From Candidatus Latescibacterota bacterium (lineage in GTDB: Bacteria > Latescibacterota > UBA2968 > GCA-2709665): DNA of 64,000 nt. Made by a program: the position numbers and the translations under genes. Location of the stretch: the NCBI GenBank assembly GCA_965219995.1, contig CBDCOX010000002.1:5152001-5216000 (forward strand). Reading direction: 5' to 3'. Numbering within the stretch: the first letter of the stretch is position 1; every line of letters starts with the position of its first letter. The notes under the pieces were generated by a model, which searched no databases, was not told the DNA's origin, and saw nothing but the letters and a program-made list of their open reading frames with translations. Shown piece after piece: positions 5,086-60,943 of the stretch.

Positions 5086-5095
5086 GGCCCTGGCG

Positions 5096-7768: not shown

Positions 7769-7779
7769 GGCTACCCGCG

Positions 7780-8529
7780 GTGTCTCCGGAGGAGCGGTTC
7801 CGCTTCGACCTGCAGGGCTACGTCGTCGTTCCGGGCGTCCTGACCCGCGACGAGTGCGCGGAGCTCTCCGAGCTGGCCGACCGTGCCTGGCCGCGCGTGC
7901 CCGGGGACGGTCCGTACCGGCGCCTGGAGGCGTTTTCGCGCTGGGGCAAGCCGTTCCTCGACCTGATGGACCACCCGACCGTCCTGCCCTACCTGATCGA
8001 ACTCCTCGGATCGCGCCTGCGCGCCGACCACGACTACACGATCTTCACGCGGCAAGGCACGGATCCGCATCGCCTGCACGGCGGACCCCGCCGCTACGAG
8101 ACGGACCACTGGTACTACTACAGCGACGGCATCATGCGGAACGGCCTCACCGTCGCGACCTGGGCGCTCACGGACGTGGGTCCCGGCGACGGTGGCTTCG
8201 TCTGCATCCCGGGCAGCCACAAGACGAACTTCCTCCCCAACCTGCCGGACGACGTGCGCCGCCAGGAGCGCCTGCCCGACTACGTCCACCAGCCTCCGGT
8301 CCGGGCCGGAGACGTGCTGATCTTCACGGAGGCGCTGATCCACGGCGCCGCGCCGTGGCGGGCCGGGCACGAGCGCCGCGCGCTGCTCTACAAGTACAGC
8401 CCTCCGCACTCGACGTGGCGGAAGGAACCCTACGACATCGGCGCGTATCCCGAGGCCACCGAGCGGCAGCGGCGGCTCATGGCGCCGCCTTCGGTGGAGG
8501 ACCATCCCAAGGTGCTCGAAACCCCTTAA
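7780..8529 (+). CDS. Phytanoyl-CoA dioxygenase (PhyH) family protein
   Basis: FDLQGYVVVPGVL, GGFVCIPGSHK and AGDVLIFTEALIHG motifs; GTG start at 7780. Confidence 0.85.
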   Translation: MSPEERFRFDLQGYVVVPGVLTRDECAELSELADRAWPRVPGDGPYRRLEAFSRWGKPFLDLMDHPTVLPYLIELLGSRLRADHDYTIFTRQGTDPHRLHGGPRRYETDHWYYYSDGIMRNGLTVATWALTDVGPGDGGFVCIPGSHKTNFLPNLPDDVRRQERLPDYVHQPPVRAGDVLIFTEALIHGAAPWRAGHERRALLYKYSPPHSTWRKEPYDIGAYPEATERQRRLMAPPSVEDHPKVLETP

Positions 8530-8617
8530 GGGACGCTGTCCGTCCCGGCGCGAGTCGCGGTCGTCAATAACGATGTAGTGTGCGATAGTCAGGGCGCGAA
8601 CCAGCGAAGGGAATACG

Positions 8618-10703: not shown

Positions 10704-10719
10704 GAGCCTCCGCAGTCGC

Positions 10720-12096
10720 ATGACGACAAGGATCGACAGTTCAAGACTCAAGGTCCTGAAACAGCGTGAGGAGGCGCGCTACCTCGCGGAACGCCCGAAA
10801 TCGGTGGCACTGTACGAGAGGGCGAAGGGCTCCCTGTTCGCCGGTGTGCCCCACTCCTGGATGAACGACTTCATGGGCCGTCTTCCCCTCTTCATAGAGG
10901 AAGGCCGGGGAGCCTACGTGACCGACGCCGACGGTCATCGCTACCTGGACCTCCTTGGAGCCGACCACGGAGCGATATTCGGGCACTCGCCGCAAGCCGT
11001 CGCCGATGCCGTAGCCGATCGCGTGCAGCGAGGCGTCATGTTCACGCTTCCCTCGTCGGACGCCATCTGGGTCGGGGAGGAACTGGCGCGCCGCTTCGGT
11101 CTGCCGTACTGGCAGATCCACATGACGGCCAGCGATTCGAACAGGACCGCGATCAAGATCGCCCGCGAGATCACCCAGCGGAACCTGATCCTTTGCTTCA
11201 ATGGTTCCTATCACGGCACCGTGGACGAAACGCTGGTCACCGTCGTGGACGGCCGGATGATCACCGATCCCTATGGCGGCGCCTCGTATGGCATCGGGGC
11301 GTTACCTGACCCTGAGTCCAGGACGCGCGTAGTCGAGTTCAATGACCTCGATGCGTTGGAGAAGGCACTGTCCCCCGAGGACGTTGCCTGCGTGCTGACC
11401 GAGCCGGCGATAGCGCAGATGTCCGTTTACCCGCCGGATCCAGGCTTTCATGAGGGACTGCGGGAACTGACCCGCCGCTTCGGCACGCTGCTCCTCATCG
11501 ACGAGACCCACAACATCGTTGCCGGCGCGGGAGGGTTCACGCGTCTCTGGAACCTCGAGCCGGACATCTTCGTCTTGGGGAAAGGGATTGCGAGTGGCAT
11601 CCCCGCCTCCGTCATGGGTCTCAGCCAGGAGGTGGCCGACAGGGCGCTGCCCCTCTTCGAGAAGAACTTCGTACAGGGCATCGGGACCACGTTGTCCGGC
11701 AATGCGCTGGCGGTCGCCGCACTGAGAGCGACCCTGGAGCATGTCATGACGGACTCGGCTTACGAGCGGATGACGTCCGGCGCGGAGCGGATGGCCGCTG
11801 GCATGGACAGGGTGATCAAGGCCGCCGGCCTGCCATGGCGCGTGGACTGTCTCGGCTGCAGGGTGGTGCTCCGCTTCTCCCAGGCGGTGCCCAGGAACTT
11901 CGCCGAACAGCGGGTGGAAGGGAGGGGGCTCCAGGGACTGGCCGAAACGGGCATGTACTTCCATGCGTTCTATGCCAATCGAGGCATCCTTGTTCCGCCG
12001 GGCTTCTTCGCGTTGATCTCGCCCGAAGTCACGGAGGACGATATCGACTTCCACAACCAGGTGTTCGGTGAGTGCGTAAACGACCTGGTTGGCTAA
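10720..12096 (+). CDS. Class III aminotransferase (glutamate-1-semialdehyde aminomutase-like)
   Basis: GAYVTDADGHRYLD, FNGSYHG, LLLIDETH and PDIFVLGKGIASG (PLP lysine) motifs. Confidence 0.88.
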   Translation: MTTRIDSSRLKVLKQREEARYLAERPKSVALYERAKGSLFAGVPHSWMNDFMGRLPLFIEEGRGAYVTDADGHRYLDLLGADHGAIFGHSPQAVADAVADRVQRGVMFTLPSSDAIWVGEELARRFGLPYWQIHMTASDSNRTAIKIAREITQRNLILCFNGSYHGTVDETLVTVVDGRMITDPYGGASYGIGALPDPESRTRVVEFNDLDALEKALSPEDVACVLTEPAIAQMSVYPPDPGFHEGLRELTRRFGTLLLIDETHNIVAGAGGFTRLWNLEPDIFVLGKGIASGIPASVMGLSQEVADRALPLFEKNFVQGIGTTLSGNALAVAALRATLEHVMTDSAYERMTSGAERMAAGMDRVIKAAGLPWRVDCLGCRVVLRFSQAVPRNFAEQRVEGRGLQGLAETGMYFHAFYANRGILVPPGFFALISPEVTEDDIDFHNQVFGECVNDLVG

Positions 12097-12160
12097 GGCG
12101 CTTGCGCCTTTGCAGTTTCGCGTCAGCGAAACTCCCAACGCGACCGTCAGGTCGCGCTAG
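12093..12160 (-). repeat. Dispersed double-hairpin element, copy 1 (intergenic)
   Basis: Reverse complement CTAGCGCGACCTGACGGTCGCGTTGGGAGTTTCGCTGACGCGAAACTGCAAAGGCGCAAGCGCCTTAG matches 36686-36752. Confidence 0.85.
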
Positions 12161-12181
12161 AACCCGTCCTGACCGCACGCC

Positions 12182-13173
12182 TCAGCGCATCAGCCACCGC
12201 AACGAGTCGGCGAAGATCGCGCCGCCGTGGTACAGGCTGTGGCCGCCCTCGCCGAAGACGTAACGGTCTCGTACCCCGCGTACTCGAGCGCCGAGGCCAT
12301 CAGCCGGTTCGCGAGCGGCCAGTTGCCGAAGATGATGTCGAGGTCTCGCTTCCCGCTCTGCAGGAACACCCGGAGGGGCTTCCTGGGCGTCGACCGGATG
12401 AGATACGGATAGTTGTGGCCGCCCCGGATGTTCACGAAGGACCCCACGTGAGAGAGCACCCGGCCGAACGCGGACGGATCGTGCCAGGCCGCGTTGAACG
12501 CGCAGATGCCACCGCTCGATATGCCACAGATCAGGCGCTTCGACGGATCCTGCGCGAACCGCACGCCGGCCTCCGACTCCACGAACGGCAGGAGTTCGTC
12601 GACGAGGAACCGCACGTGCGCAGCCGTCACGGCGTCGTACTCCATGCTGCGATTGATCGTGGCTTCGTCCTCCGTCATTCCCGGGCGCCGGCCCGGCATG
12701 ACGAACACCGCGACCGTCGGCGGCAGTTCCCCCGCGTGGATGAGCGAGTCGAGCACCGCCGTGACCCGCACCGCGCCTTTCGGGTCGAGGTACAAGTCCC
12801 CATCCAGGAACACCATGAGCGAAGGCGCCGCCACGGACTCGAGCTGCTCCGGCAGGTATACCCAGACGTCACGGACAGTCCCCCGGTAGATCCGGGTCCT
12901 GTCCCAACCGAGGAACTCGCGCACGGTACCGCGCGGAACGTCCGGCCCCGGATGCGCCTCGGGACCCGGGTGGTACTGCCGGTCCCCCGGCACGTCCAGC
13001 GCGTCGAGCGCCTCCATGTTGGAGCGGCCGTTCACCTCGGCGTCGAGGCCCAGCTCCAGGAAGGACCTGTCGAGTCCCAGGCGGCGGAAGTCTTCGACCT
13101 CCATCGCCAACGCCGGCACGCCCGCTGCCGCCAGCGCACCCATCAGGCTACGTCTCGTGATCCCGATCGTCAC
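12182..13173 (-). CDS. Enterochelin-esterase-like alpha/beta hydrolase with Tat-like signal (frameshift near 12265)
   Basis: TRRSLMG twin-arginine motif, GISSGG nucleophile elbow, PRKPLRVFLQSG. Restoring one C gives the C-terminus VFGEGGHSLYHGGAIFADSLRWLMR. Confidence 0.82.
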
Positions 13174-13290
13174 TCCCACTCTCCGTCTCGTATCCCCTGC
13201 CGGGTTCCCGAGATTCTCGCACCGACGAGGGTGCGTCGAAACCGGCCGGGCCGGTAGCCCGGTCCCGGCCAAGACTTGGGAGCTTCGCCG

Positions 13291-14814
13291 ATGTTGCAAG
13301 GATTCCTGGCCAGGAAGTCTCGCGAGAACCTGGACACGTTGACCGGCGAAGTCGGAAACGCCCTCTCCGCGGTGACGTTGGGGTTCGTTTCTCCCGGGAC
13401 GGAAAAGAAGATGTACTGGTGGGGCGTACCCAGTCTCGGCCTCATGGGCGTGAGCGACTTCCTCACGCTCTTCCTGCTCTACTACTACAACCAGATTCTC
13501 GGGCTATCCGCCGTCCTGGCGGGACTCGCCCTATTCATTTGCGTGGTCTTCGACGCCGTTTCGGATCCTGTCATCGCTTACTGGTCCGACAGGCACAAGG
13601 GGAAATACGGCAGGCGAATACCGTTCATGTTGGTCGGCATCGCTCCGATGACCCTCTCCTGCCTCGCTCTCTTCGTCCTGCACCCCGGAGACGCACAGTG
13701 GATACTGTTCGTGCAACTGACTGTCCTGATGTCCATATTCCAGGTCGCCAATACGGCCTTCGCGGTACCAAGACTTGCTCTGGGCGTGGAGCTGTACAAG
13801 GACTATTCGAAACGGAACCAGCTACTGGGTACCGACCGGATCTTCGAGATCTCCGGAACCGCCGTCTGCGTATGTCCGATCCTCTTCCTGATGCCCGATT
13901 GGGATCAGGCACACCTTTATCCCTGGGCAGCCCTCTGGGTCTGCTGCCTCCTGGGTTGGTCGCTTTACCTGGGGACGGTGAGGCTCAGCGCGGTCGAGAG
14001 CAACCTGCTTGAGCTGGATCGGACCGGAAAGGTCTCCGACTTTTCCTTTCCGATGCTGGCGAAAGAAATCAGGGCGTTGCTTTCCAATCGCAACTGGATG
14101 ACCTTGCTCATCGCGTTCCTGTTCATCAGCGTCAACGGCGGCATCCAGACGAGCGATCAGGTCTATTTGAACAATCACCTGTTTCAGTTCGACCCCCGCG
14201 ATCTGTTTTGGGCGACCCCCCTGCAACTTGGCGGAGGCGCCATCGCCGCCGTCCTGACCTGGCGTATCGCAACGGGGAGAAGCAAGCGGAACCTGGTGCT
14301 GATTTCCAGCGGACTGAGCTTTTTCGTCTCCCAGCTACTGATCGGGCTGATGGCCATGGACTACTACTTTGGCTACACCCTGGTACCCGATGCCGGAGGC
14401 GGGGTGCTGAGTCCCCTGTGGTGGATCTGGGCGTTTCACGGTTGCCTCAACGGGGCGATCTGGACCTTCTTCATGATACTGGTGGTGTCCATGTTCGCCG
14501 ACGTCGTGGAGGAACATCAGGCGTCGACCGGGCCGAGATCGGACGGGCTTGTCCTGGTGGGCCGCAATCTCGTCACGAAGCTGATCGCGAGCGTCGGCGT
14601 CCTGCTCGCCGGCTTCATGATCAGTTGGGCAGGATTCGACGATGCAACCACCGCCGAGGCGAAGGAAGTAGCGGTCTACAAGTTCGTGGTGATCAAGATC
14701 GCCGTTACCGCCGTGTTGATTCCCATGGCCGTGTTCTTCTTGGCGAGATACTCTCTGACCGAAGCTCAGCATCGAGCCAATCTGAGGAAACTGGGGTACG
14801 AGAAACAGATTTGA
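13291..14814 (+). CDS. MFS transporter, GPH (Na+/melibiose symporter-like) family
   Basis: FDAVSDPVIAYWSDR..GRRIPF and SMFADVVE motifs, many hydrophobic helices. Start position uncertain. Confidence 0.85.
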   Translation: MLQGFLARKSRENLDTLTGEVGNALSAVTLGFVSPGTEKKMYWWGVPSLGLMGVSDFLTLFLLYYYNQILGLSAVLAGLALFICVVFDAVSDPVIAYWSDRHKGKYGRRIPFMLVGIAPMTLSCLALFVLHPGDAQWILFVQLTVLMSIFQVANTAFAVPRLALGVELYKDYSKRNQLLGTDRIFEISGTAVCVCPILFLMPDWDQAHLYPWAALWVCCLLGWSLYLGTVRLSAVESNLLELDRTGKVSDFSFPMLAKEIRALLSNRNWMTLLIAFLFISVNGGIQTSDQVYLNNHLFQFDPRDLFWATPLQLGGGAIAAVLTWRIATGRSKRNLVLISSGLSFFVSQLLIGLMAMDYYFGYTLVPDAGGGVLSPLWWIWAFHGCLNGAIWTFFMILVVSMFADVVEEHQASTGPRSDGLVLVGRNLVTKLIASVGVLLAGFMISWAGFDDATTAEAKEVAVYKFVVIKIAVTAVLIPMAVFFLARYSLTEAQHRANLRKLGYEKQI

Positions 14815-14910
14815 GCAAGCTGATCGCAACCCAGAACCCTGTCTCGATCCTCGAGGACACCCGCCTGCAATAGAACAGGCGGGGATACCGGCCACCTCGC
14901 GTGTTGCGTC

Positions 14911-15606
14911 CTAGCGTCCCCCGCGGCCGCGCTCCTGGGCCTCCCGGCGTTGCCGCCGCTCGGCCAGCCGTTGCTTCTCGGCGCGCGACTGCTCCACGGT
15001 ACGCACCCACTCCGCGCACCACGCCGCCATTTCGTTGGCCGGCAGCCGCGAGACGATCTCGCCGCGTTCGAGCACACACTGCTCGACCGGTTGCGGAATC
15101 CCCAGCGAGTCCGGGCGCGAGTTGTCGAGCACTTCCAGTTGGTCAAACTGCTCGACGGTACGACGCAGATTCGACAGCGAATAGCGGTAACGCTCCGGCA
15201 CCCGCCCGGGATCCACCCGGTGCCCGGTGTGCTCCAGTACCCGCCGCTCGATCCGCGCCACGTTGATCTCGGGGGACTCCGTGCCGATGTAGATGCCCTC
15301 GATGCGGTAGTGGGCACGCCGCACCCGCTCGACCATCTCCCGGCCGGGCCGGCCAGAATAGGTGCTCTCGATACCGAAGCTCATGCGTGCCTGGAGCGCC
15401 GTGCCGACTTCCTCGTCGACGTACCGACGTGTGCGCTGCCGCGCATCCTCGCTATCCCAATCCCCGATGCCGCCCGCAATGGAATCCTGGTCAAAGTACC
15501 GGTCTGGCAACCGGTCGTAGTTGGCGCGCTTCCAGGCGCTCTTGCCAGAGCCGTTGCACCCCATGACGATGGTGAACACAGGCCGGGAGTCAAGTTGATC
15601 AGCCAT
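14911..15606 (-). CDS. Zeta-toxin-like P-loop kinase/ATPase
   Basis: VMGCNGSGKS Walker A, SFGIESTYSG, INVARIERRV..GH, EVLDNS. Confidence 0.8.
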   Translation of the reverse strand: MADQLDSRPVFTIVMGCNGSGKSAWKRANYDRLPDRYFDQDSIAGGIGDWDSEDARQRTRRYVDEEVGTALQARMSFGIESTYSGRPGREMVERVRRAHYRIEGIYIGTESPEINVARIERRVLEHTGHRVDPGRVPERYRYSLSNLRRTVEQFDQLEVLDNSRPDSLGIPQPVEQCVLERGEIVSRLPANEMAAWCAEWVRTVEQSRAEKQRLAERRQRREAQERGRGGR

Positions 15607-15908
15607 TTTCAGCCCCGGAGCGGGAGTTTCCCGGGTGCGGGCTGGAGACGATCGTCCAGTGCTTCCCGCTGGCGCACGATGTACAAGCGCTCCGCCGATC
15701 GCATGTTCGTTTGCGGAAGCTCGACCATGCGCTCTGCTCAGTGAGGCCGCGGCCGCCGCGCAGGTCCCGGAGCCGGGCCGTACGGGACCGGTAGAACTGT
15801 CGCGCCTCGTCGACCCCGCGTCGGTACCCCACCGGATCGAGCACCTTGCCCGCCAGGCGAATCGCGACGTCCACCTGCTCCCATGTCTTCTACCCTTCTG
15901 CCCGGGGG

Positions 15909-16196
15909 TCAGTCGGCCTCGGCCGTCACCGGATCGATCATGCGCTTGACCGGCGTGACCACGCTCGCCGGGAAGCCGCTGCGCTCCGCGTGCTCGTCGA
16001 TCAGGGCGGGGTCGTCTGCGATGTAGATGCAGAACGTCTTGTCGCCGGCGACGTAGGAGTGCTCCCACTGGATGTTCTTGTTCTCGGCCTTCATCTCGGC
16101 CAGCACGCCGTTCGACTTCTGGGACGCCTCGCGCAGCGCGTCGCGCTCGGCCGATCCGATCTCCGGGATGTCTCTCTCGATCACGTACCTGGGCAT
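15909..16196 (-). CDS. DUF4242 domain protein
   Basis: MPRYVIERDIP...IQWEHSYVAGDKTFCIYIA...EHAERSGFPA; GGAGGAG RBS. Confidence 0.85.
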   Translation of the reverse strand: MPRYVIERDIPEIGSAERDALREASQKSNGVLAEMKAENKNIQWEHSYVAGDKTFCIYIADDPALIDEHAERSGFPASVVTPVKRMIDPVTAEAD

Positions 16197-16260
16197 GGTT
16201 CTCCTCCGGGCTGTTCGTGTCGCTCGACACGGGCGAGCCGGGGAGCCTACGCTAGCCGCG

Positions 16261-16525
16261 ATGCACGCGCCACACCGGGTCATCGACGTCCACGCCCACG
16301 CCGTCCTCGAGGCCGGGTTCGGCGCGGCGGGCAGGCATGGGCCGGAACTCATCGTGGACAGCCGCGGTTCCTCGTCGTTCCGCGTCGGCGAGTTCCGCGA
16401 GGTGCGCAAGCTCTGGTTCGATGCGCAGGTCGAGGGACAGGGGGCGCTCGACCTCTTGATCGAGACCGTCGGACAGGACCGGCTCGCGTACGGCACGAAC
16501 TTCGGCGGCTGGGATACGCCTAAAA
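16261..16525 (+). pseudogene. Amidohydrolase_2 family remnant with a large internal deletion
   Basis: N-terminal VIDVHAH is joined within about 45 codons to C-terminal motifs LWFD...VGQDRLAYGTNFGGWD. Confidence 0.6.
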
Positions 16526-45913: not shown

Positions 45914-46912
45914 TCATACCCCAACCGCCGCGGGCAGATGGCGCCGCGCGACGCGCCGGCCGATGCCGGTGAGCACCTCGTAGGCAATGGTGTCCGACCA
46001 CGCGGCGACCTCGTCGACGCCCACCGTCGGGCCGAAGAACTCGACCCAGTCACCCCTTTCGACGGCGATGCCGGTGGCGTCGACCTGGGTCAGGTCCATC
46101 GACACCCGACCCAGGATAGGCAGCCGGACGCCGCGGACGGCGACCTCGCCCCGATTCGACAGCAGCCGCGGGACGCCGTCGGCGTAGCCCGCGCCGACGA
46201 CCGCCACCGTCGTGTCCCGCGCGAGGACGCGCGACGCCCCGTAGCCCACGCTCTCTCCGGCCCGCACCTCACGCACCTGCAGGACCTGGCCCTCCAGCGT
46301 CGCGACGCACCGCATCGGATTGTCCCGGTCGCTGTAGGGATTGCCGCCGTACAGGCCTATACCGGGCCGGCCGATCCCCCGCACGCCGTTCAGGACGCCG
46401 GCCGAGTTCGCGATACTGACCGGGACCCCGGGGAAACGGGCCGCGACGGTCTCGAAACGCTCGAGCTGCACGGCGTTCATCGGATGATCCGGCGTGTCGG
46501 CACAGGCCAGGTGCGTCAGCAGCAGGACCACCTCCGGGTGGTCCGGCACGTCTTGCGGTGCGAAACCGAGGCGCTGCATGCCCGTGTCCACGTGGAACGC
46601 CACCGGCCCCGCGCGAAGCTGCGACGGCTGGTTGACGACGGGAACGAGGCCGTCCGCGGAGGCCTCTCCCGAGAAGACAAAGATGTCGCAATCCCCGGCG
46701 AGCGTCTCCCGCAGGGCGAGTCCCTCCGCCTCGGTCGCGACGAAGAACCGGGTGCAGTCCTCCGCCGCCAGCCGCGCGGCCACCGCTTCCATCCCGAGCC
46801 CGTAGGCATCGGCCTTGACGACCGCCGCCACCCCGTCCGGCGCGCGCGCCCGGAACGCGCGGTAGTTGGCCGCGAGCGCATCGAGGTCGACGGTCAGGCG
46901 CGCCAGCGTCAC
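45914..46912 (-). CDS. alr: Alanine racemase
   Basis: AVVKADAYG, VDTGMQRLG, RPGIGLYG, GYADG, GRVSMD and TIAYEVL motifs. Confidence 0.95.
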   Translation of the reverse strand: MTLARLTVDLDALAANYRAFRARAPDGVAAVVKADAYGLGMEAVAARLAAEDCTRFFVATEAEGLALRETLAGDCDIFVFSGEASADGLVPVVNQPSQLRAGPVAFHVDTGMQRLGFAPQDVPDHPEVVLLLTHLACADTPDHPMNAVQLERFETVAARFPGVPVSIANSAGVLNGVRGIGRPGIGLYGGNPYSDRDNPMRCVATLEGQVLQVREVRAGESVGYGASRVLARDTTVAVVGAGYADGVPRLLSNRGEVAVRGVRLPILGRVSMDLTQVDATGIAVERGDWVEFFGPTVGVDEVAAWSDTIAYEVLTGIGRRVARRHLPAAVGV

Positions 46913-47066
46913 GCCCTACTTCCCCGCGGGCGCGGAGCGCAACCGTGGAGCAGGCGCGGCCGGCCTGCAAACGCGCCGTCCGGAAATCCGTGACATCCGC
47001 TCCGCCCATCGCGCGGAGCGCCTGACCGACGCCTTGCGCCCACTGCCCTCTCCCGGTACGCCGACG

Positions 47067-49073
47067 CTACAACCCGAGCAGGCCGAGCAGTTCCTCTCGG
47101 GACAGCGTCGCCGAGAGATCGATGGTGACATCGTCGATGAGTTGGTCGAACAGAGCCTGTTTCTTCGCCAGCAACCGGTCGATTCGTTCCTCGATGGTGT
47201 CGACGCACATGTACTTGACCACGTGTACCTTGACCGTCTGACCGATGCGATGCACGCGATCCTCGGCCTGCTTCTCGACCGCCGGATTCCACCATCGGTC
47301 GAGATGAAACACGTACGACGCTTCCTGCAGATTCAGGCCGACGCCACCCACGCCGAGCGATACGATCAGCGCCCGATGACCGGGGCGGGTTCTGAACGCA
47401 TCCACCAACGCCGGCCGGTCGGGGGCCGGCGTATCCCCTGTCAGGACTACCGGGTCGAACTCGGCGAGGCGCCTGGACGCCAGCCCCACGCCAGCCGTCG
47501 CGCTGACGTACTGCGAGAACACCACCGCCTTGTGGCCTCGTCCCGACAGTGCAGCGAGCCGTTCCGCGATGTCGTCCAGCTTGCTGGAGTCGCCGGTTCT
47601 CGGATCGGCATTGCAGATCTGCTTGAGCCGGGTGATCAGCTCGAGGACATGCACGATGGTCACATCCCCGCCAAGGGCCTTGAGGTAGACGATCCCGTCC
47701 CGTTCGGCGCGGTCGTAGCTGGCCCGCTGCCCGGAGGACAACTCGATGTCCCGACGGGTCACGAGCTTGTCCGGCAGGTCCTCCAGGACATCGGACTTGC
47801 GGCGGCGCAGTTGCAACTCACGGTGCCGGGCGAAAAGCGCTGGACCCGGCGCGTAGCGCTTGAGTGGCACACTGCCGTCGTGATCGACGAACTCCATCAC
47901 CGAGGCCAACTCGTCCTCGCGGTTTTCCACGGGTGTGCCGGTCAACGCCCAAGAGCGCACTCGGCCCAAACGCTTCACGGCTTCGCTGGTTTCGACGCCG
48001 CGGTTCTTGATCCGCTGAGCCTCGTCCGCCACCACCGTGTCCCAGGCCCGGCGCACCTCCTGGCGCCAAGCATCCGCGCGCAACACACCGTAGCTCGTGA
48101 GCGTGACGTCCGGTGCGGCCCGCCACTTCCACGCGCGCTCCGCCGCGGAACCGCGCACGACGATGGCCGTGAGTTCCGGCGCCCATCTCGCGATCTCGCG
48201 CCGCCATTGGTCGAGGATGCTGGTGGGCGCGACGACCAGGACCCGGCCCAAGCCGCCCCGCGACCGCCGTATGCGCAAGGCCGCGATGACCTGGATGGTC
48301 TTGCCGAGCCCCATGTCGTCCGCGAGCAACAGCCCCGGCATGTCGAGCAACGCGCGCACGCCCTCTTGCTGGAACGGCATCAGCGGGGCCGGCCAGGACA
48401 GCGGGCCCGACCCGTCGGCGGGAGAATCGCACAGGTCGGGGGGAGGACAGAGAATGTGGCGCAGCCGCCCGGGCAGATCGGGTGTTCCCGAGTCCGGAGG
48501 GGAGGTCTCCGTCAGCGGCAGCGTAACGGTCACGGCGAAACCCGGGATCGTGGTCACCCCACGCACCCGGCCATCCCCGAACGCCGCATCCGCCGCCACC
48601 GATACACGGCTCAACGGCTCGAGTCCGCGGGCGTCGGCCGACAGGCGCCGCATGGTCCGTTCGGCGACCGCAGTGGGTTCCCGCGCCCACGACGGCATCT
48701 GCGGCGCGCTTCCCGCCGCGTGCTCGGGAATCCGGTACACGGGCACCTGCACTGCGGCGGCAGTGGATCCGTCGAGTTCCTCCGCCGCTGCCACGATCAG
48801 CACTGGCCGTTCCGGTCCGCCGTCGAGCAGCGCGTCGATGGCCGCGCGCAACGGGTACGAGGCCCCCACCGGCGCGTCGGTTCGGGCGGCTTCAAAGCTG
48901 GCGAACCGGAAACGGATCGGCGTGCCGTCGACGCCTGACTCGAACAGCGCCACACGCGATCCGGAGCCGTCCGGCGCCCGGGACACCCGCAACCACGCTA
49001 CCGACCCGGTATCCGGCCGCTGCGGCGCAACGACCCCACGGTCCGCAACCGCAATTCCCCCTTCCCGGTTCAC
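47067..49073 (-). CDS. SNF2 family helicase/ATPase
   Basis: LADDMGLGKT, DEAQ, LTGTPVEN, GVGLNLQ and WWNPAVEKQAEDRVHRIGQ motifs; GTG start overlaps the upstream TGA. Confidence 0.92.
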   Translation of the reverse strand: MNREGGIAVADRGVVAPQRPDTGSVAWLRVSRAPDGSGSRVALFESGVDGTPIRFRFASFEAARTDAPVGASYPLRAAIDALLDGGPERPVLIVAAAEELDGSTAAAVQVPVYRIPEHAAGSAPQMPSWAREPTAVAERTMRRLSADARGLEPLSRVSVAADAAFGDGRVRGVTTIPGFAVTVTLPLTETSPPDSGTPDLPGRLRHILCPPPDLCDSPADGSGPLSWPAPLMPFQQEGVRALLDMPGLLLADDMGLGKTIQVIAALRIRRSRGGLGRVLVVAPTSILDQWRREIARWAPELTAIVVRGSAAERAWKWRAAPDVTLTSYGVLRADAWRQEVRRAWDTVVADEAQRIKNRGVETSEAVKRLGRVRSWALTGTPVENREDELASVMEFVDHDGSVPLKRYAPGPALFARHRELQLRRRKSDVLEDLPDKLVTRRDIELSSGQRASYDRAERDGIVYLKALGGDVTIVHVLELITRLKQICNADPRTGDSSKLDDIAERLAALSGRGHKAVVFSQYVSATAGVGLASRRLAEFDPVVLTGDTPAPDRPALVDAFRTRPGHRALIVSLGVGGVGLNLQEASYVFHLDRWWNPAVEKQAEDRVHRIGQTVKVHVVKYMCVDTIEERIDRLLAKKQALFDQLIDDVTIDLSATLSREELLGLLGL

Positions 49074-50113
49074 GCCGGCCGTGGGGTCAGCACGAGGTCG
49101 GTGCCGAAACCCAATCCCCCGACCTCGGCCGCCGCGCGCATCTGCTTCTCTTTCGTCGCGTTGTTGCTGTTGGTCGCGAGCCACCAGCCACCGACGAGCT
49201 CCGTGGCGTGCTCCCGCAGGTCTGGCCTGTGAGGGTAAAGCGCCTCGGGGTTCCGAGCGATGTACCGACGCGTTCTGTCGCCACGCTCTCGACCAGCGAA
49301 GACCGGGTGCGCGGCGCATCGTTCCAGAAACGTCTCGTCACGCGCGTGCAGATCCCGCAAGACCACCACCAGCGCGTCCTTCATGTTCGCGAAGTCGTGC
49401 TCCCGACCCTCGACCGTGACCGTCCCCCGCCTGTGCGTCCGGCGTCGCGTCCCGGAACCTGACGCCGGGATCGAAGCGCGCGGACCGGGCGCCGCTTTCG
49501 CAAGGAAGCACCTGACGTCGCCAGCATCGGGCCTGACACCAGCCGAGTCCCACACTTCATCGCGGAGCAGTTCCACCAACTGGCCGTCCGCCCGCGACAC
49601 CAGCCGCTGCCAGGCCCGCGGAATGGCGCGCCGCATCACCGCTTCCTTGACCGAAGCGCCAGAGACGACGTGCCCGCTCGACAGAAAACGGTCCAGAACC
49701 TCCGCAGTGTCCTCGCTCGTCCGCAAGTCCAGCGCGAAAACCGGTTCCGCATCTTCTCCGTCTTCCGCGAAGAACAGCCGCCATGTCGGGCCATCGGTCA
49801 CAAGCAGCAAAGGAACGCCCGCGCGCCGCGCCCGCGGGAGAACCTCCGTAACGGCGTTCCCCTCGCGCCAGCGCCCTTCGAGCTCGACGACGCAGTGCGG
49901 GCGTGCCAACGGCGTGCCGCACAGCGCAAGATCAACGCGATGCCGCCCCAGGGCAAAGTCCGGCACCACGGCGGAGGTGTCGAACACGTCCCACCCCAGT
50001 TCCTGGAGTAGGGGCAGGACCATGCCGTTGAGCACCGCCTGGCGTCCCCTTGCGGGACTCGCGCCGAACCGCCCGACGGCTTCCGCGATGCGCCGCTGCA
50101 GCGAGGCGTTCAC
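49070..50113 (-). CDS. HsdR-N-like (PD-(D/E)xK) domain fused to a SeqA-C-like DNA-binding domain
   Basis: N-terminal PLLQELGWD...VDLAL...LLVTDGPTWRLF. C-terminal RTRRYIA...WWLATNSNNATK recalls SeqA RTRVYFA...YWVITNTNTGRK. Confidence 0.65.
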   Translation of the reverse strand: MNASLQRRIAEAVGRFGASPARGRQAVLNGMVLPLLQELGWDVFDTSAVVPDFALGRHRVDLALCGTPLARPHCVVELEGRWREGNAVTEVLPRARRAGVPLLLVTDGPTWRLFFAEDGEDAEPVFALDLRTSEDTAEVLDRFLSSGHVVSGASVKEAVMRRAIPRAWQRLVSRADGQLVELLRDEVWDSAGVRPDAGDVRCFLAKAAPGPRASIPASGSGTRRRTHRRGTVTVEGREHDFANMKDALVVVLRDLHARDETFLERCAAHPVFAGRERGDRTRRYIARNPEALYPHRPDLREHATELVGGWWLATNSNNATKEKQMRAAAEVGGLGFGTDLVLTPRPA

Positions 50114-51396
50114 GCTTGCTCCGTCCCGCCCTCCGGGTCGCCTTCGAGGTCACGGTCCTCGCGGTAGTCGGGGGCGAACTGCTCCGTCTCGGTCTCCGGC
50201 ACGGCCTCGGGAACGAGTCGGCGAAGATCCCACGCGTTGATGGCGGCGCGGACCTTGTAACGCATCCGGCCCTGGAAGCCCGCGCCTCCGGCGTCCAGAT
50301 CGAGCGTCGGCGCCGCCCAGCCATGCGCCTTGCCGTAGATGCCCCGCAACCGCTCGACCGCCTGCGTCACGTCCACGTCCGTCGGCGCACGCAACGTTAC
50401 GCAGTCGTCGCGCAATGCCCGCATGCCCGCTTCGGCCAGATTCGCGAGGTGTGCGTGACGCAGGCTGCCGAGCAGTCGCGGACGTACGTTGTCGCAGTCC
50501 TGCTTGCCGTCCGCGCTGATGACGGCCGACGCGAAGTCCTCGGTCAGCGCACCCGCCACGGCGATGCCCCCCTGGGGGCCGTCGTCTTCTCCCAACCAAC
50601 GCGCCACTTCCGCGTAGGCACGCCCGCGTTGAAGGATCGAATAGGAGCCGATGAGTTCCAGCTCGTCCAGCAGGACGACCCATCCTCGATACCCGGCGCC
50701 CTTCACGAGTTCCAGCGCGAAACGGAGCCGCTGTCCCGGCAACTCCGCGGCGCGCGGCGCCCGGAAGCGGTGTCGCTGCAACTGTCCTATCTCCCGCAGC
50801 CCAGCGCGCACCCGGGATAGCAGGATACGGTCCCCGGCCCAGAAGGACTCGATCGCCCTCTTCAGGTCCGGGTCCCCGGAGTCCTGGTAGACGGTGAGCG
50901 TTGCCGGGAATATGCCGCTCAGCATCCCGCCGGCTGCCGCTTCCTCCGCCCATCGCAAGAGGGCGTACTCTCTTCCCGACGCCCGCAGAGCCTCCCCCAG
51001 TTCCTCGATCAGCCGGCCGCCCCGGTCCGGCATGAGGGCGCTCTCGATGGCTGCGGCGAACACCTTCCCCAGATCGTAAAGCGGGGTTTCCTTGCTCACG
51101 GCGACCTTGCTGCATACGAAGCCCTGCGCGAGCGCGAGTTCCTGAAAGTGCGCGAGCACGTGCGACTTTCCGGAACCGAAGTCGCCAGAGAGGAGCATGC
51201 CGCGGTGTCCGTCCGGAGCGGCGTCGAGGAGCGTCCGAAACCGCGCCTCCGCAGCCTCCTGATTGCAGCCGAGCAGGCGCACGGCAGCGCGGTTCGGCAC
51301 TCCGTTGCGCAGCGCCTCGAGGGCTTGCCGGCAGTCGCGTTGCGAGGCGTCGGCGGCCTCTCCGGGCCGGATGCCGGTGGCGTGCTGCCGGCTCAC
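50110..51396 (-). CDS. BrxD/DUF2791-like P-loop ATPase
   Basis: ALEALRNGVP, GDFGSGKSH (Walker A), SKETPL and GWVVLLDELE (Walker B). Confidence 0.82.
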   Translation of the reverse strand: MSRQHATGIRPGEAADASQRDCRQALEALRNGVPNRAAVRLLGCNQEAAEARFRTLLDAAPDGHRGMLLSGDFGSGKSHVLAHFQELALAQGFVCSKVAVSKETPLYDLGKVFAAAIESALMPDRGGRLIEELGEALRASGREYALLRWAEEAAAGGMLSGIFPATLTVYQDSGDPDLKRAIESFWAGDRILLSRVRAGLREIGQLQRHRFRAPRAAELPGQRLRFALELVKGAGYRGWVVLLDELELIGSYSILQRGRAYAEVARWLGEDDGPQGGIAVAGALTEDFASAVISADGKQDCDNVRPRLLGSLRHAHLANLAEAGMRALRDDCVTLRAPTDVDVTQAVERLRGIYGKAHGWAAPTLDLDAGGAGFQGRMRYKVRAAINAWDLRRLVPEAVPETETEQFAPDYREDRDLEGDPEGGTEQA

Positions 51397-52364
51397 GGCG
51401 GCGCGCCCTCCAGGCCGAGTCGCACCAGCGCCGCCATCGGATTGACGTGGCGGCGGTCCCGCACGTCATCCATCACGCGCGTACGCAACGCGTCGTAGAT
51501 GCGCCAGCCGCGCGGCGCCTGATCGTCCACGAAGTCCGGGCTCGTCGCGACGATCAGCAGCGTGCCCGTCAGGCGGTCGATACCGTCGACGAACTCGCGC
51601 AGCAGTTCGTAGTGATCGATCGTCATGGCTCGCGTGTAGTAACGTGCTCCGTCCCGCGGGTTGCGCGCCACCGTGACACGGCTGGTGTCGAAGACGATGG
51701 CGGTGCCCGTGTAGGCGCTGGCCGCCAGCCACCGGAGGGCGGACTCCATGAAGTAGCGGGCCGTGGTCCGATTGATCGGCGTGCCGATCGAGAAGGGCCG
51801 CAGGGGGCCTATGCGGTTGTTCTCGCCGGTCAGCCAGTCCAGCAGGGGCTGACAGGCATCACGCCCACCCCCGGCGCCGCACTCCGCCATGCAAAGGTGA
51901 TACATCGCCCTGCGGAAGTCCCGTCCCATGCCCGGGTCGTCCAGGACGCGACCCTGCACTTCGCGCCGCAGCTCCAGCAGCACCGTCTGGACGGTCAGCC
52001 CGCTCTGCGCCCCGATGCCCTCGGCGACCGGCGTCGTCTCCTCCACGCCGTCCGCGACCATTCCCAGACCCGCGGCGAGGGCCAGGATGCGCCGCCGCGC
52101 GAGCAGCCACCAGTCGATCCGCGTCGCTATCGCGTGAAACACATCCTGCGGCATGTGGGCGCGGCAATCGCGGGCGTCGACCCGGACCGCGAAGTACCCC
52201 CGTTCGACACAACGCTGCGCCAGCCCCCGCGCCAGCTGCCGCCGCTCGGTCTCGTCGCCGACCGCGATCTTGAACGCGGCGCCGCCCTCCGCAACAAAAG
52301 TCCGCAAGTACTCGCGGTCCAGAACGTCGAGCCAACGCTCGACAGATATGCCGTGCTGCATCAA
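51393..52364 (-). CDS. BrxD/DUF2791-like protein with degenerate P-loop
   Basis: YLRTFVAEGGAAFKIAV, YELLREFVD and IYDALRTRV family features. GKS/T is absent and the Walker-B region reads IVFDTS. Confidence 0.65.
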   Translation of the reverse strand: MMQHGISVERWLDVLDREYLRTFVAEGGAAFKIAVGDETERRQLARGLAQRCVERGYFAVRVDARDCRAHMPQDVFHAIATRIDWWLLARRRILALAAGLGMVADGVEETTPVAEGIGAQSGLTVQTVLLELRREVQGRVLDDPGMGRDFRRAMYHLCMAECGAGGGRDACQPLLDWLTGENNRIGPLRPFSIGTPINRTTARYFMESALRWLAASAYTGTAIVFDTSRVTVARNPRDGARYYTRAMTIDHYELLREFVDGIDRLTGTLLIVATSPDFVDDQAPRGWRIYDALRTRVMDDVRDRRHVNPMAALVRLGLEGAPP

Positions 52365-53161
52365 CCTGCGTCGCTGAACTTGACGCCGTAGTACTCGAGG
52401 TTCTCCCCGGCCGGATCGACGAACGAGAACAGGTCCGCCGAACGAACCCGCGTTCCGGTCGAGGCGGGGAACGACACGACGAAGCCTCTTCTGGTCTCCC
52501 GCGGTCCCTTGGCATCGAGCGTGTAGATGTCCCGCGCGAAGTCGCTACGGTCGTAGTCCCGGCTCGCGCCCGGCAGGGCCGTCAGGACCTTGTAGATGCG
52601 TGCCAGCGGCAAGACGCGGCCACCGCCGCTCCCCGCCAGGTCCCCGCCCGCCTCCCGCAGCAGCTCGTCGTAAACCAGGTACAGCGTCTCGAGGAAGCGC
52701 GCGGGTGCAAAGCCGCTGGTCCGGCGCTGGTTACGCAGGAGTTGGGCCGCCAGGAACGAGGGACGGATACTCCTCAGGCGCTTGCGGTCGACCCGGACGG
52801 CGCGTTCCGCAGGCAGGATGCGCACCATGGACGGGTACGCGACCAGATAGCCGTCCCGCTCGTGGAGCGTCACCCCCGCCGCTTCCGCCGCCCCGCGCAG
52901 TTCTTCCGCGTATCCCGCCTCGAGGTATGCCTCTTCCTCCTGCGGCGCGAAAGGCCAGGCGGCGCCCGCGGTACGTACTTCGCCGTCAAGGGCTGCGCAT
53001 GCCAGGTCGAGATCCGCCTGGGCCTTGCGTAGCGCGCCGATGTTGCCCTCCCGAGCGGCTTTCGCCATTGCCCGGGCCTTGCCGGCGACGCCGGCCGCCG
53101 CCTTGCGAGTCGCCTCCGCGACCGCCTCCGCGCCCTCGAAAGCCTGTTCGATCACGTGCAT
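52361..53161 (-). CDS. Conserved-looking hypothetical protein (N-terminal coiled coil)
   Basis: Strong coding bias; first gene of the 4-nt-overlapped operon; RPSFLA and YDRSDFARDIYTLD segments. Confidence 0.75.
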   Translation of the reverse strand: MHVIEQAFEGAEAVAEATRKAAAGVAGKARAMAKAAREGNIGALRKAQADLDLACAALDGEVRTAGAAWPFAPQEEEAYLEAGYAEELRGAAEAAGVTLHERDGYLVAYPSMVRILPAERAVRVDRKRLRSIRPSFLAAQLLRNQRRTSGFAPARFLETLYLVYDELLREAGGDLAGSGGGRVLPLARIYKVLTALPGASRDYDRSDFARDIYTLDAKGPRETRRGFVVSFPASTGTRVRSADLFSFVDPAGENLEYYGVKFSDAG

Positions 53162-53333
53162 CCTGCGTCCCGCCCGTTGCTCGACCGGAATATAGCATCG
53201 CGATCCGCCGCCGGTTCAACGGTCCGGCCGGCGCCACGCCCCCGGAGAGTTCTTGCCAGGATCTGCTCTCGGGGTCGAACGGCCTCCGGCTGTCTGCGGT
53301 TAGACTGCGCATCCGCTCGGACCTGGAGCACAC

Positions 53334-54254
53334 ATGAACTCACCCCCGCGCGCAATGGGCATCCTGCTCACTGCACTTTGCTGTGCGGCGTGGCCCACCG
53401 CCGCCGACCTTCTCGACCGCGTCGAGCACAAGTACGCCGACAACGACGGCGTCTCCATCCACTACGCCCTCGCGGGGGAAGGCCCCCTCGTCGTCGCGAT
53501 CCACGGATTTCCGGACTTCTGGTACACGTGGCGCGACCAGATGGAGGCGCTGGAAGGGGACTACCGCATCGCGGCGGTCGACCTGCGCGGCTACAACCTG
53601 AGTGACCAGCCCGAAGGCGTCGCGAGCTACGCGATGCCGAACCTGGTGGCCGACATCGCGGCGGTCATCGCCGCCGAGGGCGAGGACTCCGCGGTCGTCG
53701 TCGGGCACGACTGGGGCGGAGCGATCACCTGGAACGTCGCCATGGCGCGACCGGACCTGGTCGATGCGCTCGTGATCCTCAACCTGCCCCACCCGGCGGG
53801 GCTCAGCCGGGAACTCGCGACCAATCCCCAGCAGCAGGAGAACAGCCAGTACGCGCGGAACTTCCAGCAACCCGATGCGCACACCTACCTGACCGCCGAG
53901 GCGCTGACGGGGTGGGTGCGGGACGAGACCGCCAAGGCGCACTACGTCGCCGCTTTCGAACGGTCCGACTTCGAAGCGATGCTGAACTACTACAAGGCCA
54001 ACTATCCTCGAGCCTCGGGCGACGCGATGGCGCCGGGACCGGAGTTCCCCAAGGTGCAGGCTCCCGTGCTGATGTTCCACGGCCTCGACGACCAGGCGCT
54101 GCTGCCGGGCGGCCTGAACGGAACCTGGGACTGGCTGGAGCGCGACCTCACCCTGGTGACCATCCCCGGCGCCGGGCACTTCGTGCAGCAGGACGCGAGC
54201 CGGCTCGTGTCCGAGACGATGGAGGACTGGCTGGGACGGCGGGTGGGAGGTTGA
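53334..54254 (+). CDS. Epoxide-hydrolase-like alpha/beta hydrolase (exported)
   Basis: [25 protein letters not shown] and AGHFVQ motifs. Confidence 0.92.
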
Positions 54255-54469
54255 ACGCGAACCGCGCCGGACCCAGGGTGGCCTCACGCCAGTTTCCGAA
54301 AGCGAAACAACCCGATCCGCTATTTCGATTTCGGCGCTAAATCAAGATAAGCCGGCGGCTCGCCGTTCGGTGCGACAATCGGACTCCAGGGCCTCCGTCG
54401 ACGCCAGGGGAGCAGTCGCCGCGAACCTGTGAAGCAGGCTTTCCACCACGCGAACCGGAGAACCCCGAT

Positions 54470-58990: not shown

Positions 58991-60943
58991 ATGAGAGCAG
59001 CCTTTCCCACCGCCTGCCTGCTGCTCGCCGCCGCGGGCAGCGCCGACGAACCGGGCACGATGATCGAGTGGCCCCATGTCGGCGCCGATCAGGCGCACAC
59101 CAAGTACTCCGCCGCCGCCGACATCCGCGTCGCGAACGTCGGGGAGCTCGGAATCGCCTGGCAATGGCAACCGAACGAGGCGCCGTTCCCGGAGTACGGC
59201 AGCAAGCCCGGCAGGTTCATGACGACGCCCATCATGGTCGACGATGTCCTGTACCTGTCGACCATGTATACCCGGGTGGTCGCTCTCGACGCGCAGACCG
59301 GCGCCGAACTGTGGGCTTTCGACCCCAAGGCATACGAGGGCGGGTCGTGGGGCGTCCGCCCCGCCGGGTTCGAGCACCGCGGCGTCGCCCACTGGCGCGA
59401 TGGGGACGACGCCCGCATCTTCCTCAACAGCCGGGACCGGCTGTACGCGGTCGATGCCGACACCGGCGAACTCGACACGGGCTTCGGCGACCGCGGCAGC
59501 GTGTTGCTGAGCGCAGGCCACGGCCGCTCGGTAAGCGCATCCGAGTTCGACCAGACCTCGCCGCCCGTGGTGTTCGAGGATCTGGTGATCGTCGGCAGCC
59601 GCATCCCGGACCAGGTCCAACGCAGATTCGACCCGCCGGGAACGGTGCAGGCCTTCGACGTGCGCACCGGAGAGCGCCGCTGGGTCTTCTTCACCGTGCC
59701 GCAGTCGAAGGACGACTACGGCGCCGACACCTGGAAGGACGAATCCTGGCGTTTCGCCGGCCATGCCAACGTCTGGGGCCTCATGTCGGTGGACGAGCGG
59801 CGCGGCCTGCTCTATGTGCCGACGAGTACGCCGAGCAGCGACTACTGGGGTGGGCGGCGGCTCGGCGCAAACCTGTTCGCGGACTCGCTGGTGTGCCTCG
59901 ATGCGCGCACCGGCAAGCGCCGGTGGCACTTCCAGGCCGTGCATCACGGCCTCTGGGACTACGACTTCGGCGCGCCGCCGAACCTGGTATCGATCACGGT
60001 CGACGGGCGCGAGATCGACGCCGTCGCCGAGGTGTCCAAGCAGGGCTTCACCTATGTGTTCGACCGTGTGACGGGCGAGCCGGTCTGGCCCATCGAGGAG
60101 CGGCCGGTGGACGTGGCGACCGACGTGCCGGGCGAAGTACCGCATCCGACGCAGCCGTTCCCGACCAGGCCGCCGCCGTTCAGCGGCCAGGGCGTCGCCC
60201 TGGAGGACGCCAACGACCTGACGCCGGAGATCCATGCGCTGGCGCTCGAGGAGATGCGGCAGTTCAGGTTGGGTCCGCTGTTCACGCCGCCCAGCCTGCG
60301 CGGAACGCTGCAGCGTCCCGGCACGGTCGGCGCCGCATCCTGGGGCGGCGCGGCGTTCGATCCCGAGACCCGGCTGCTCTTCGTGAGGACATCGGAGAGC
60401 GCCGATACCAACCAGGTCTGCGAGGATGCGGGCGAGAACCCGGAAGTCGATGTGCCCTACAGCAACGACTGTCCCCACGGCGCGACGCTCGTCATGTTCC
60501 GCGGCGCACCCGGATCGCGGGGCGCGGAGGCCCCGCCGCGCACACTCGGCCCGATACCGGTCATCAAGCCGCCCTACGCGCATCTGGTGGCGATCGACAT
60601 GGACGCGGGCGAGATCGCCTGGAAGGTGCCCTTCGGGGAAGGCAGCGCCGAGATCCGCGAGCACCCGCTGCTGCGCGGCGTCAAGCTGCCGGATCGGCTC
60701 GGCACGTTCGGCAGGGGCGGCCCGATGGCAACCGCGGGCGAACTCGTGTTCGTCGGCGGCGGCGATCCCTACCTGTACGCATTCGACCAGGCGACCGGCA
60801 CCGAGGTCTGGCGCGGCGCCACGCCGCAACCAACGGAAGGCAACCCCATCACCTACCGCACGCGATCCGGGCGACAGTTCGTCGTCATTGCCGCCGGTGC
60901 GGGAGAGGATGCGGTCCTGGTCGCCTTCGCGCGGCCCGAGTAG
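58991..60943 (+). CDS. PQQ-dependent dehydrogenase (glucose/quinate/shikimate-type family)
   Basis: WHFQAVHHGLWDYD, FDRVTGEPVWPIEERPV and GGAAFDPET motifs. Confidence 0.92.
   Translation: MRAAFPTACLLLAAAGSADEPGTMIEWPHVGADQAHTKYSAAADIRVANVGELGIAWQWQPNEAPFPEYGSKPGRFMTTPIMVDDVLYLSTMYTRVVALDAQTGAELWAFDPKAYEGGSWGVRPAGFEHRGVAHWRDGDDARIFLNSRDRLYAVDADTGELDTGFGDRGSVLLSAGHGRSVSASEFDQTSPPVVFEDLVIVGSRIPDQVQRRFDPPGTVQAFDVRTGERRWVFFTVPQSKDDYGADTWKDESWRFAGHANVWGLMSVDERRGLLYVPTSTPSSDYWGGRRLGANLFADSLVCLDARTGKRRWHFQAVHHGLWDYDFGAPPNLVSITVDGREIDAVAEVSKQGFTYVFDRVTGEPVWPIEERPVDVATDVPGEVPHPTQPFPTRPPPFSGQGVALEDANDLTPEIHALALEEMRQFRLGPLFTPPSLRGTLQRPGTVGAASWGGAAFDPETRLLFVRTSESADTNQVCEDAGENPEVDVPYSNDCPHGATLVMFRGAPGSRGAEAPPRTLGPIPVIKPPYAHLVAIDMDAGEIAWKVPFGEGSAEIREHPLLRGVKLPDRLGTFGRGGPMATAGELVFVGGGDPYLYAFDQATGTEVWRGATPQPTEGNPITYRTRSGRQFVVIAAGAGEDAVLVAFARPE

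Follow-up and report, generated by a model that had tools for sequence, protein, structure and literature searches.

Is a five-gene operon that joins BREX-like ATPases to a SNF2 motor a system in its own right, and does it defend its host? The question is raised by five adjacent genes (denoted A–E) in a 64,000-nucleotide (nt) stretch of the genome of a Candidatus Latescibacterota bacterium (contig CBDCOX010000002.1, positions 5,152,001–5,216,000 of the forward strand), which we refer to as the window. The original prediction, made from the sequence letters alone, proposed a stand-alone anti-phage or anti-plasmid operon built on an active/inactive ATPase hetero-oligomer, a DNA reader and a SNF2 translocase. 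We found that the window's locus is a variant of a conserved, horizontally spread cassette, A-B-C-E, to which gene D is added between C and E. The cassette itself is real and conserved and falls in the ATPase-plus-helicase class. Defense against phages or other mobile DNA is its most likely role, with a probability that we place slightly above even, on the strength of family resemblance, a patchy and horizontally spread distribution, and a minority of loci with defense or mobile neighbors.

52361–53161, minus strand: gene A, 266 amino acids (aa)
51393–52364, minus strand: gene B, 323 aa (322 aa if the start is ATG 52361)
50110–51396, minus strand: gene C, 428 aa
49070–50113, minus strand: gene D, 347 aa
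47067–49073, minus strand: gene E, 668 aa from the in-frame GTG at 49073

The coordinates of the open reading frames (ORFs) and the junction sequences bear out the first description of five minus-strand genes with a 4-nt overlap at each junction (TTGA, GTGA, GTGA and GTGA for A/B, B/C, C/D and D/E, in order). An alternative at A/B is TGATG, with B starting at the ATG one codon later and a 1-nt overlap. The longest ORF of E extends to 49319.

A protein search with A returned 149 proteins at E ≤ 0.001; among the 120 relatives listed, every name given was "hypothetical protein," and none had a precomputed Pfam domain. An exhaustive profile search placed 862 cluster representatives in the A family at E ≤ 1e-3 (647 at ≤1e-10 and 281 at ≤1e-30). 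Related loci were the best 80 of 203 confirmed A relatives (pattern scan, one genome per species), with record titles that all begin "MAG" (metagenome-assembled genome); one locus stops just past A, which leaves 79 with downstream DNA. B and C lie directly 3′ of A in 79/79 of these loci, and E is present in 70/79 (tblastn), so that the recurring gene order is far beyond chance and the co-occurrence on which the original prediction depended is conserved. Both A and B were extracted from 63 loci, in 57 of which the gap between them is −4 or −1 nt; C and E are mostly 8–40 nt apart. At least six phyla are represented among the loci (Pseudomonadota, Chloroflexota, Acidobacteriota, Binatota, Gemmatimonadota and Thermodesulfobacteriota). 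Two of the 79 carry a whole D (L024, 95% identity; L028, 45%) and L025 a 61-residue remnant, and all seven same-genus genomes with the cassette carry A-B-C-E without D. The conserved unit is A-B-C-E, and D is accessory.

We found A in 13 of 168 sampled genomes of the window's phylum and in eight of 14 other genomes of its genus. A FastTree phylogeny of C was inferred from 87 rows (the 79 loci, the window and the seven same-genus copies). The window groups with L024–L028, all titled Pseudomonadales MAGs (support 100), and the seven same-genus copies cluster elsewhere, in a clade of their own among Chloroflexota rows (support 91–96). Phylum labels need nine changes on this tree, compared with a minimum of five and a shuffled mean of 39.2. 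The same-genus copies all sit at one locus, among pyridoxal phosphate (PLP) decarboxylase, ankyrin-repeat protein and GNAT genes, unlike the locus in the window. Their different clade and different locus indicate that the genus acquired the cassette at least twice.

What do the conserved genes encode? C matches PF10923 (BrxC_BrxD) at E = 8.1e-17, passing the cut-off (61.7 bits vs. 22.2), and the PADLOC BrxD model at 9.7e-14. Its match to PADLOC SngB is weak (E = 2.2e-4, 18.5 bits, with no single stretch passing alone), and the NCBIfam BREX_BrxD model (NF033438) gives 49.8 bits over residues 18–119 only, short of its cut-off of 350. Both motifs first reported for C, GDFGSGKS and LLDELE, were located and are invariant in 30 sequences (Walker A G71, G74, G76, K77 and S78; Walker B D244 and E245). 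C looks like an active BrxD-like P-loop ATPase of the ORC/Cdc6 type of AAA+ proteins, judging from these motifs.

51163–51186, minus strand: Walker A of C (GDFGSGKS), from the conserved-residue alignment
50656–50673, minus strand: Walker B of C (LLDELE), from the conserved-residue alignment
52239–52259, minus strand: degenerate Walker A position of B (GDETERR), from alignment to the sister ATPase

B had been described as a relative of C that lost the Walker A lysine. It matches PF10923 at E = 1.4e-8 in the C-terminal half of the profile only (profile positions 163–331). There is no P-loop in 26 B sequences, in which HMPQD, INRTTARY, DHYELLRE and ALRTRVMDDVRD form invariant blocks. Comparison with an ATPase of a related cassette (the sister cassette, described below) upholds the loss: GDETERR in B stands opposite the intact glycine-rich GKT Walker A of the sister ATPase, and D-T (D-N in orthologues) stands opposite its Walker B D-E. 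A profile of the 26 B orthologues aligns over positions 8–318 to this BrxD/SngB-like ATPase at full length (97.2%, E = 3.4e-11). With full-length homology to such an ATPase and both Walker motifs replaced, B is, from its sequence, a catalytically dead BrxD/SngB-like paralogue. Among PDB sequences, the B profile found nothing below E 0.01, and the C profile found generic P-loop rows only.

Modeling of C together with B supports a heteromer, in line with the active/inactive pair first proposed. The complex scored 0.83 in three runs, compared with 0.00 for the best of three controls; among reference cases, 58 of the 80 solved complexes and 2 of the 110 mismatched pairs attain this mark, and it is a rough guide here, where own alignments were used. 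The runs agree in at least 93% of contacts, with a predicted local distance difference test score (pLDDT) of the partner of at least 88. The modeled interface joins C residues 19–37 and 380–417 to B residues 22–30 and 287–311. These are the invariant N- and C-terminal blocks of both families, a correspondence that is independent of model confidence. F73, E245 and L248 of C and the invariant R255 of B also lie at the modeled interface, and B may supply an arginine to the ATP site of C.

E is, by motifs I, II, III and VI and a Helicase_C lobe, a complete SNF2-family DNA translocase, as had been proposed. Pfam assigns it SNF2-rel_dom (1.9e-45) and Helicase_C (4.1e-17), and the PDB sequence closest to it is the Sulfolobus SNF2/Rad54 core 1z63 (E = 3e-82). 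DDMGLGKT, DEAQ, LTGTP and QAxDRxHRxGQ are invariant in 28 E sequences.

48297–48320, minus strand: SNF2 motif I of E (DDMGLGKT), from the 28-sequence alignment
48015–48026, minus strand: SNF2 motif II of E (DEAQ), from the 28-sequence alignment

The N-terminal ∼220 residues of E are variable, with W27, L82, P111, G178 and L185 as the only invariant positions. The region has no family match in Pfam or in a PDB profile search, and the first 225 residues hold no invariant acidic residue across the 28 sequences. An Atlas look-up of this head led to clusters that bear SWIM/SNF2_assoc (0.90, 131 features shared), no more than a lead. The core of E matches helicases of several defense systems in PADLOC (ZorD 6.2e-76, DpdE 2e-68, DrmD 3.8e-44). 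In NCBIfam, E scores best with the SCO1167/SCO6262 family helicase (9.2e-82) and with a Snf2 helicase that regulates pilus expression (3.7e-73), in each case far below the cut-off, and its ZorD score there is 161.9 bits where 1500 are required.

Searches of Pfam, PADLOC and NCBIfam gave no match for A, and no TerB match (E ≤ 0.01). An AlphaFold model built with the family alignment (pLDDT 86.8) shows a helical hairpin at residues 4–66 followed by an alpha/beta region; the C-terminal 196 residues modeled alone reached a pLDDT of 86.5. Structural comparison of this C-terminal part with VIA-align returned mostly winged-helix domains (from RNA polymerase III subunits, kleisin C-termini, ORC/Cdc6, forkhead and linker histones) at Z 5.0–6.6, all <8 and below the trustworthy level; the list for whole A is dominated by the helical hairpin.

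7a6h_P: Z 6.6, root-mean-square deviation (rmsd) 3.8, 98 aligned, query A C-terminal part
7qen_C: Z 6.5, rmsd 3.6, 87 aligned, query A C-terminal part
5oqd_B: Z 6.1, rmsd 3.1, 79 aligned, query A C-terminal part

Foldseek found nothing at E ≤ 0.001 for whole A or its C-terminal part, the A profile found nothing below E 0.01 among PDB sequences, and an Atlas look-up of the C-terminal part gave unnamed clusters only. No fused forms of A were found among proteins of 467–2000 aa, which is weak evidence. The models describe A as an orphan that begins with a helical hairpin, continues in a small alpha+beta part and ends in what may be a winged helix.

The sister cassette was found in six genomes (L018–L023), one of the window's genus, two of its family and three of its order. 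Its order is a ∼300-aa A-like protein, a 430-aa ATPase, a second ATPase of 409–487 aa and a ∼1900-aa helicase.

7339–16449 of locus L022: example of the sister cassette

The gene order is the same as in the window's cassette, and two of the genes are homologous. A residues 71–263 are related to the first sister gene (hhalign 96%, E = 4.7e-9; 94.7%, E = 6.2e-8), as is the whole of B to the second, the 430-aa ATPase, which matches PF10923 down to 1e-57, PADLOC BrxD at 8e-43 and SngB at 4e-33. The sister cassette differs in the intact GKT Walker A of its first ATPase and in its helicase, which is BrxHI/SngC-like with a superfamily 1 (SF1) module and not SNF2. This helicase, present in five of the six genomes, combines DEAD, PD-(D/E)xK and SF1 parts; its N-terminus matches BrxHI (3.6e-85) and SngC (2e-71), and the SF1 module is C-terminal. 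In the sixth genome (L020), the ATPase pair is not followed by such a helicase. PADLOC offered no evident system-level name for the sister cassette. By sequence, the theme of an A-like protein, two BrxD-type ATPases and a helicase is broader than its SNF2 form, and the sister cassette links the window's cassette by homology to components of the BrxD-BrxHI pair and of Shango.

The extra gene of the window, D, had been called an HsdR-N/SeqA-like DNA reader. The likeness stands by way of its relatives; a place in the conserved system does not, given the whole copies in 2/79 related loci and 0/7 same-genus ones. The window's D has no family match in Pfam (none at E ≤ 0.01), PADLOC or NCBIfam. Its 47 relatives are mostly ∼365 aa, with source names such as "predicted type IV restriction endonuclease" or "HsdR N-terminal domain-containing." Among 19 that were aligned, 13 match HSDR_N (PF04313), 12 match HSDR_N_2 (PF13588) and three match the SeqA C-terminal domain weakly (best E 9e-4); the D profile also matches SeqA in the PDB (3sk7_A, E = 0.007, profile positions 257–349). 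Most relatives read D...E-V-K, and the window's D reads D...E-L-E (VVELEG), with the motif lysine replaced. A window-like subgroup (P0004, P0125–P0129) has E, Q or H at the lysine position and lacks the catalytic D...(D/E)xK triad; of its members, P0004 and P0126 (the D of L028) are known inside the cassette. Some active PD-(D/E)xK enzymes use E or Q at the lysine position, so D may be active. These matches of relatives weakly indicate an HsdR_N-type PD-(D/E)xK-fold protein with a SeqA-C-like C-terminus, a possible reader or cutter of DNA. Of the six members of the window's clade, three carry D whole, one carries a remnant and two lack it; D is a clade-specific, dispensable add-on.

How does the cassette compare with described systems? 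PADLOC v2.0.0, NCBIfam 20.0 and Pfam hold no model for A, for D, or for B beyond PF10923. The literature search found no paper naming the cassette or joining DUF2791 with SNF2, within a scope of main texts (supplements could list the cassette), and a preprint on a modularity network (10.1101/2025.09.30.679545) makes no mention of BrxD or SNF2. No described system matches in the libraries searched, which agrees with the novelty first suggested, and the cassette has no name in the databases and literature covered. PglX, PglZ, TerB and methyltransferase models gave no match to A–E, again as first noted, nor did PglZ and methyltransferase models in the flanks. Over the whole genome, PF10923 matches this operon only (gene C, as two stretches within one frame), which leaves the genome without BrxC/PglY, and the operon stands alone in the sense that the original prediction intended. 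The genome has a single PglZ-domain ORF (1176980–1177558 of the same assembly's contig C2; 530-aa open frame, 65.4 bits), ∼4 Mb away and far from any BrxC-like gene.

The closest parallels are to two systems. In a 2026 BREX survey, BrxD is described as an ORC/Cdc6-type AAA+ ATPase that accompanies a helicase in type 2 BREX and forms a tight dyad with BrxHI, for which a helicase-loading role is proposed (PMC12839542). The window's cassette likewise sets a stand-alone BrxD-type ATPase beside a superfamily 2 (SF2) helicase, as in this dyad of type 2 (Pgl) and type 6 BREX. It differs in having a SNF2 helicase in place of the Ski2-like BrxHI, two ATPase paralogues of which one is dead, and the orphan A; BrxC, PglX, PglZ and PglW are absent from the operon. 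Shango consists of a TerB-like protein, an ATPase and a DEAD/DEAH helicase and gives modest to strong phage protection (10.1101/2022.11.11.516204), and it is also a small cassette of accessory protein, BrxD-like ATPase and helicase. The window's A has no TerB match, an extra dead ATPase is present, and E is SNF2, with SngC not in its best 25 PADLOC rows. Resemblance to Zorya I (ZorD), Dpd (DpdE) and DISARM (DrmD) is confined to the SNF2 core of E: ZorABC, DpdA-K and DrmABC are absent from the window's operon, and no Zor matches (ZorA/ZorB pair or ZorC) were found in A–D. DUF499 and methylases, on which the new BREX-related systems of the survey center (PMC12839542), are absent as well; those systems are a further case of SNF2 helicases in defense loci.

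We surveyed the neighbors of 24 of the 80 loci, hand-picked for taxonomic spread (two genes each side, 96 proteins, no background control). A complete Septu pair lies directly upstream of the cassette in L027, a Pseudomonadales MAG (7910–9843; PtuA 3.1e-167, PtuB 1.7e-67). L025 adjoins a type I methylase (8.6e-195) and a Schlafen/Fic protein, and L043 a HEC-01/AriA-like ATPase, DUF4276 and HNH. Probable defense neighbors were seen at L056 and L081, PIN/Phd toxin–antitoxin pairs at L066, and transposases at L041, L043 and L071. Defense or mobile neighbors in this minority of loci, together with the patchy distribution and a C tree at odds with taxonomy, suggest a fit with a mobile defense module.

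A mechanism can be sketched on this basis. Dead B and live C, as BrxD-type ORC/Cdc6-like ATPases, would form the modeled heteromer, which fits the conservation pattern, and the heteromer would act as an ATP-driven switch. A, with its coiled-coil and winged-helix-like parts, might help the heteromer to sense a DNA or nucleoprotein feature of the invader. By analogy with the BrxD-BrxHI dyad, the heteromer could then load or activate E on invader DNA, where E would strip or remodel proteins or stall replication; the motor, and not a conserved nuclease, would be the core effector. In the window's clade, D may add a PD-(D/E)xK-fold, SeqA-like module for DNA binding or cutting. Taken as a whole, the proposal is of a modification-independent immunity in which an A-guided pair of dead and live BrxD ATPases loads a SNF2 motor-effector, with swappable modules (HsdR_N/SeqA-like) tuning recognition. 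This full scheme is tentative, and we hold it to be clearly less probable than the defense role itself.

If the cassette is a defense system, it would enlarge the ATPase-plus-helicase class by a widespread family, in a class where not even Shango or the BrxD-BrxHI pair of BREX has an established mechanism. The dead/live pair, with its confidently predicted interface, would offer a handle on how BrxD-type ATPases work with helicases, and the natural variants (with or without D, without E, or with another helicase) are ready-made dissection experiments.

A number of observations weigh against defense, or against the mechanism just proposed. Most immediate neighbors serve ordinary metabolism or transport, as they do throughout the remaining surveyed loci. 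The window copy lacks the integrase, tRNA or flanking repeats that would mark an insertion (repeats are short and at chance level), and tblastn with A found no match in 72,556 plasmid records or 50,697 phage records. No conserved catalytic site of a nuclease was found in A, B, C or the head of E, an unusual lack in a defense that targets DNA. The direct similarity of B to C is weak (BLASTP E 0.34; hhalign 29.6% over 44 columns at the Walker B strand), the Z scores behind a winged helix in A are low, and the literature search found no experiment on any cassette member. A genome-maintenance or transcription-linked remodeler, acting on stalled replication or transcription complexes or on expression in the manner of RapA-type and other bacterial Snf2 proteins and not in immunity, would suit the many loci among housekeeping genes and the lack of plasmid and phage matches. 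The single syntenic position that the seven same-genus genomes keep would suit it too, as would the family names of E's best NCBIfam rows. We nonetheless regard such a role as improbable: the cassette is rare and patchy in its phylum and genus, its tree conflicts with taxonomy to the point that one genus holds two unrelated lineages at different loci, E lacks RapA-type extra domains (no family matched outside the core), and the components are kin to BrxD and SngB.

The place of the motor is also open to dispute, since A-B-C is intact without E in nine of the 79 loci. Seven of these are Vicinamibacteria (L077, L084, L086, L087, L090, L091 and L102) that form one clade with short branches. Next to them in the C tree is L070, with E present and flanks identical in kind (a radical SAM gene of the HMPTM type upstream and an ATP-grasp CoA ligase downstream), which points to a single deletion of E. 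A whole-genome search for E in five E-less genomes gave SNF2-core matches in larger unrelated proteins in three (37–44% identity) and nothing in two. With no E orthologue elsewhere in these genomes, the motor is not indispensable to A-B-C. It could be, then, that the cassette works through A-B-C, as a sensor or switch that has its own output, with the helicase an exchangeable add-on, and the sister cassette does join an A-like protein and an ATPase pair to a quite different helicase. We judge a mechanism not centered on SNF2 to be a little less probable again than a housekeeping remodeler. E follows C in 70/79 loci at short distance and in 7/7 same-genus copies, no effector domain was found in A, B or C (Pfam, PADLOC, NCBIfam), and the branch of the E-less row L100 is long (0.6), in keeping with decay. 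The matches of C to BrxD models, together with the company that BrxD keeps with a helicase in type 2 BREX, raise one further thought, namely that the operon is a stray or decayed piece of BREX (type 2 or 6) or Shango. Its probability is very small. The operon is without methyltransferase or TerB, PF10923 and the lone PglZ-domain ORF are placed as described above, and 70 loci share this four-gene unit; for this genome the idea is refuted unless the assembly (98.6% complete) misses a BREX locus. A conserved A-B-C-E cassette with a probable role in defense remains the reading that we prefer.

The surroundings of the window's operon are ordinary. The flanking genes are of the two kinds first reported, alr-like and a hydrolase, with a divergent region between A and the hydrolase.

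45914–46912, minus strand: alanine-racemase-domain gene (flank)
53334–54254, plus strand: alpha/beta hydrolase (flank)
53162–53333, no strand assigned: divergent intergenic region 5′ of A, 172 nt, the presumed promoter region from its geometry

A consensus scan found no sigma-70-like promoter, and Rfam gave no matches. The terminator scan gave one terminator-like site, inside B, compared with 2.9 expected by chance. GC content at third codon positions is 0.80–0.87 for A–E, slightly below the 0.86–0.94 of the neighboring genes checked. We looked for an empty site in five same-genus genomes: the DNA of both flanks gave short dehydrogenase-motif matches only, and the racemase-like and hydrolase proteins gave nothing at E ≤ 1e-30.

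Two RNA libraries (metatranscriptomes of one study, "sponge metagenome") contain contigs of 150–361 nt that are 95%–99% alike to parts of the operon. Within the searched region (46000–54300) they cover parts of E, D, C, B, the A/B junction and the hydrolase, and uncovered stretches are uninformative. The contigs show that a close relative was present in those libraries, and so lives in samples of this type, and not that the operon is transcribed, as RNA libraries may contain DNA.

Among the neighbors of the same-genus cassettes are ankyrin-repeat proteins (Ank_2 down to 4e-20), a type more usual in eukaryotes.

5158–6444 of locus L012: ankyrin-repeat neighbor
4964–6238 of locus L015: ankyrin-repeat neighbor
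12779–13381 of locus L015: ankyrin-repeat neighbor
11592–12866 of locus L014: ankyrin-repeat neighbor
4258–5310 of locus L011: ankyrin-repeat neighbor

Farther out from the window's operon lie dehydrogenases, an Lrp/AsnC regulator and alanine dehydrogenase. About 6 kb from the operon, at 58991–60943, is a pyrroloquinoline quinone (PQQ)-dependent alcohol/glucose dehydrogenase (PF01011, E = 1.1e-189), surrounded by fatty-acid and ketoacid metabolism genes.

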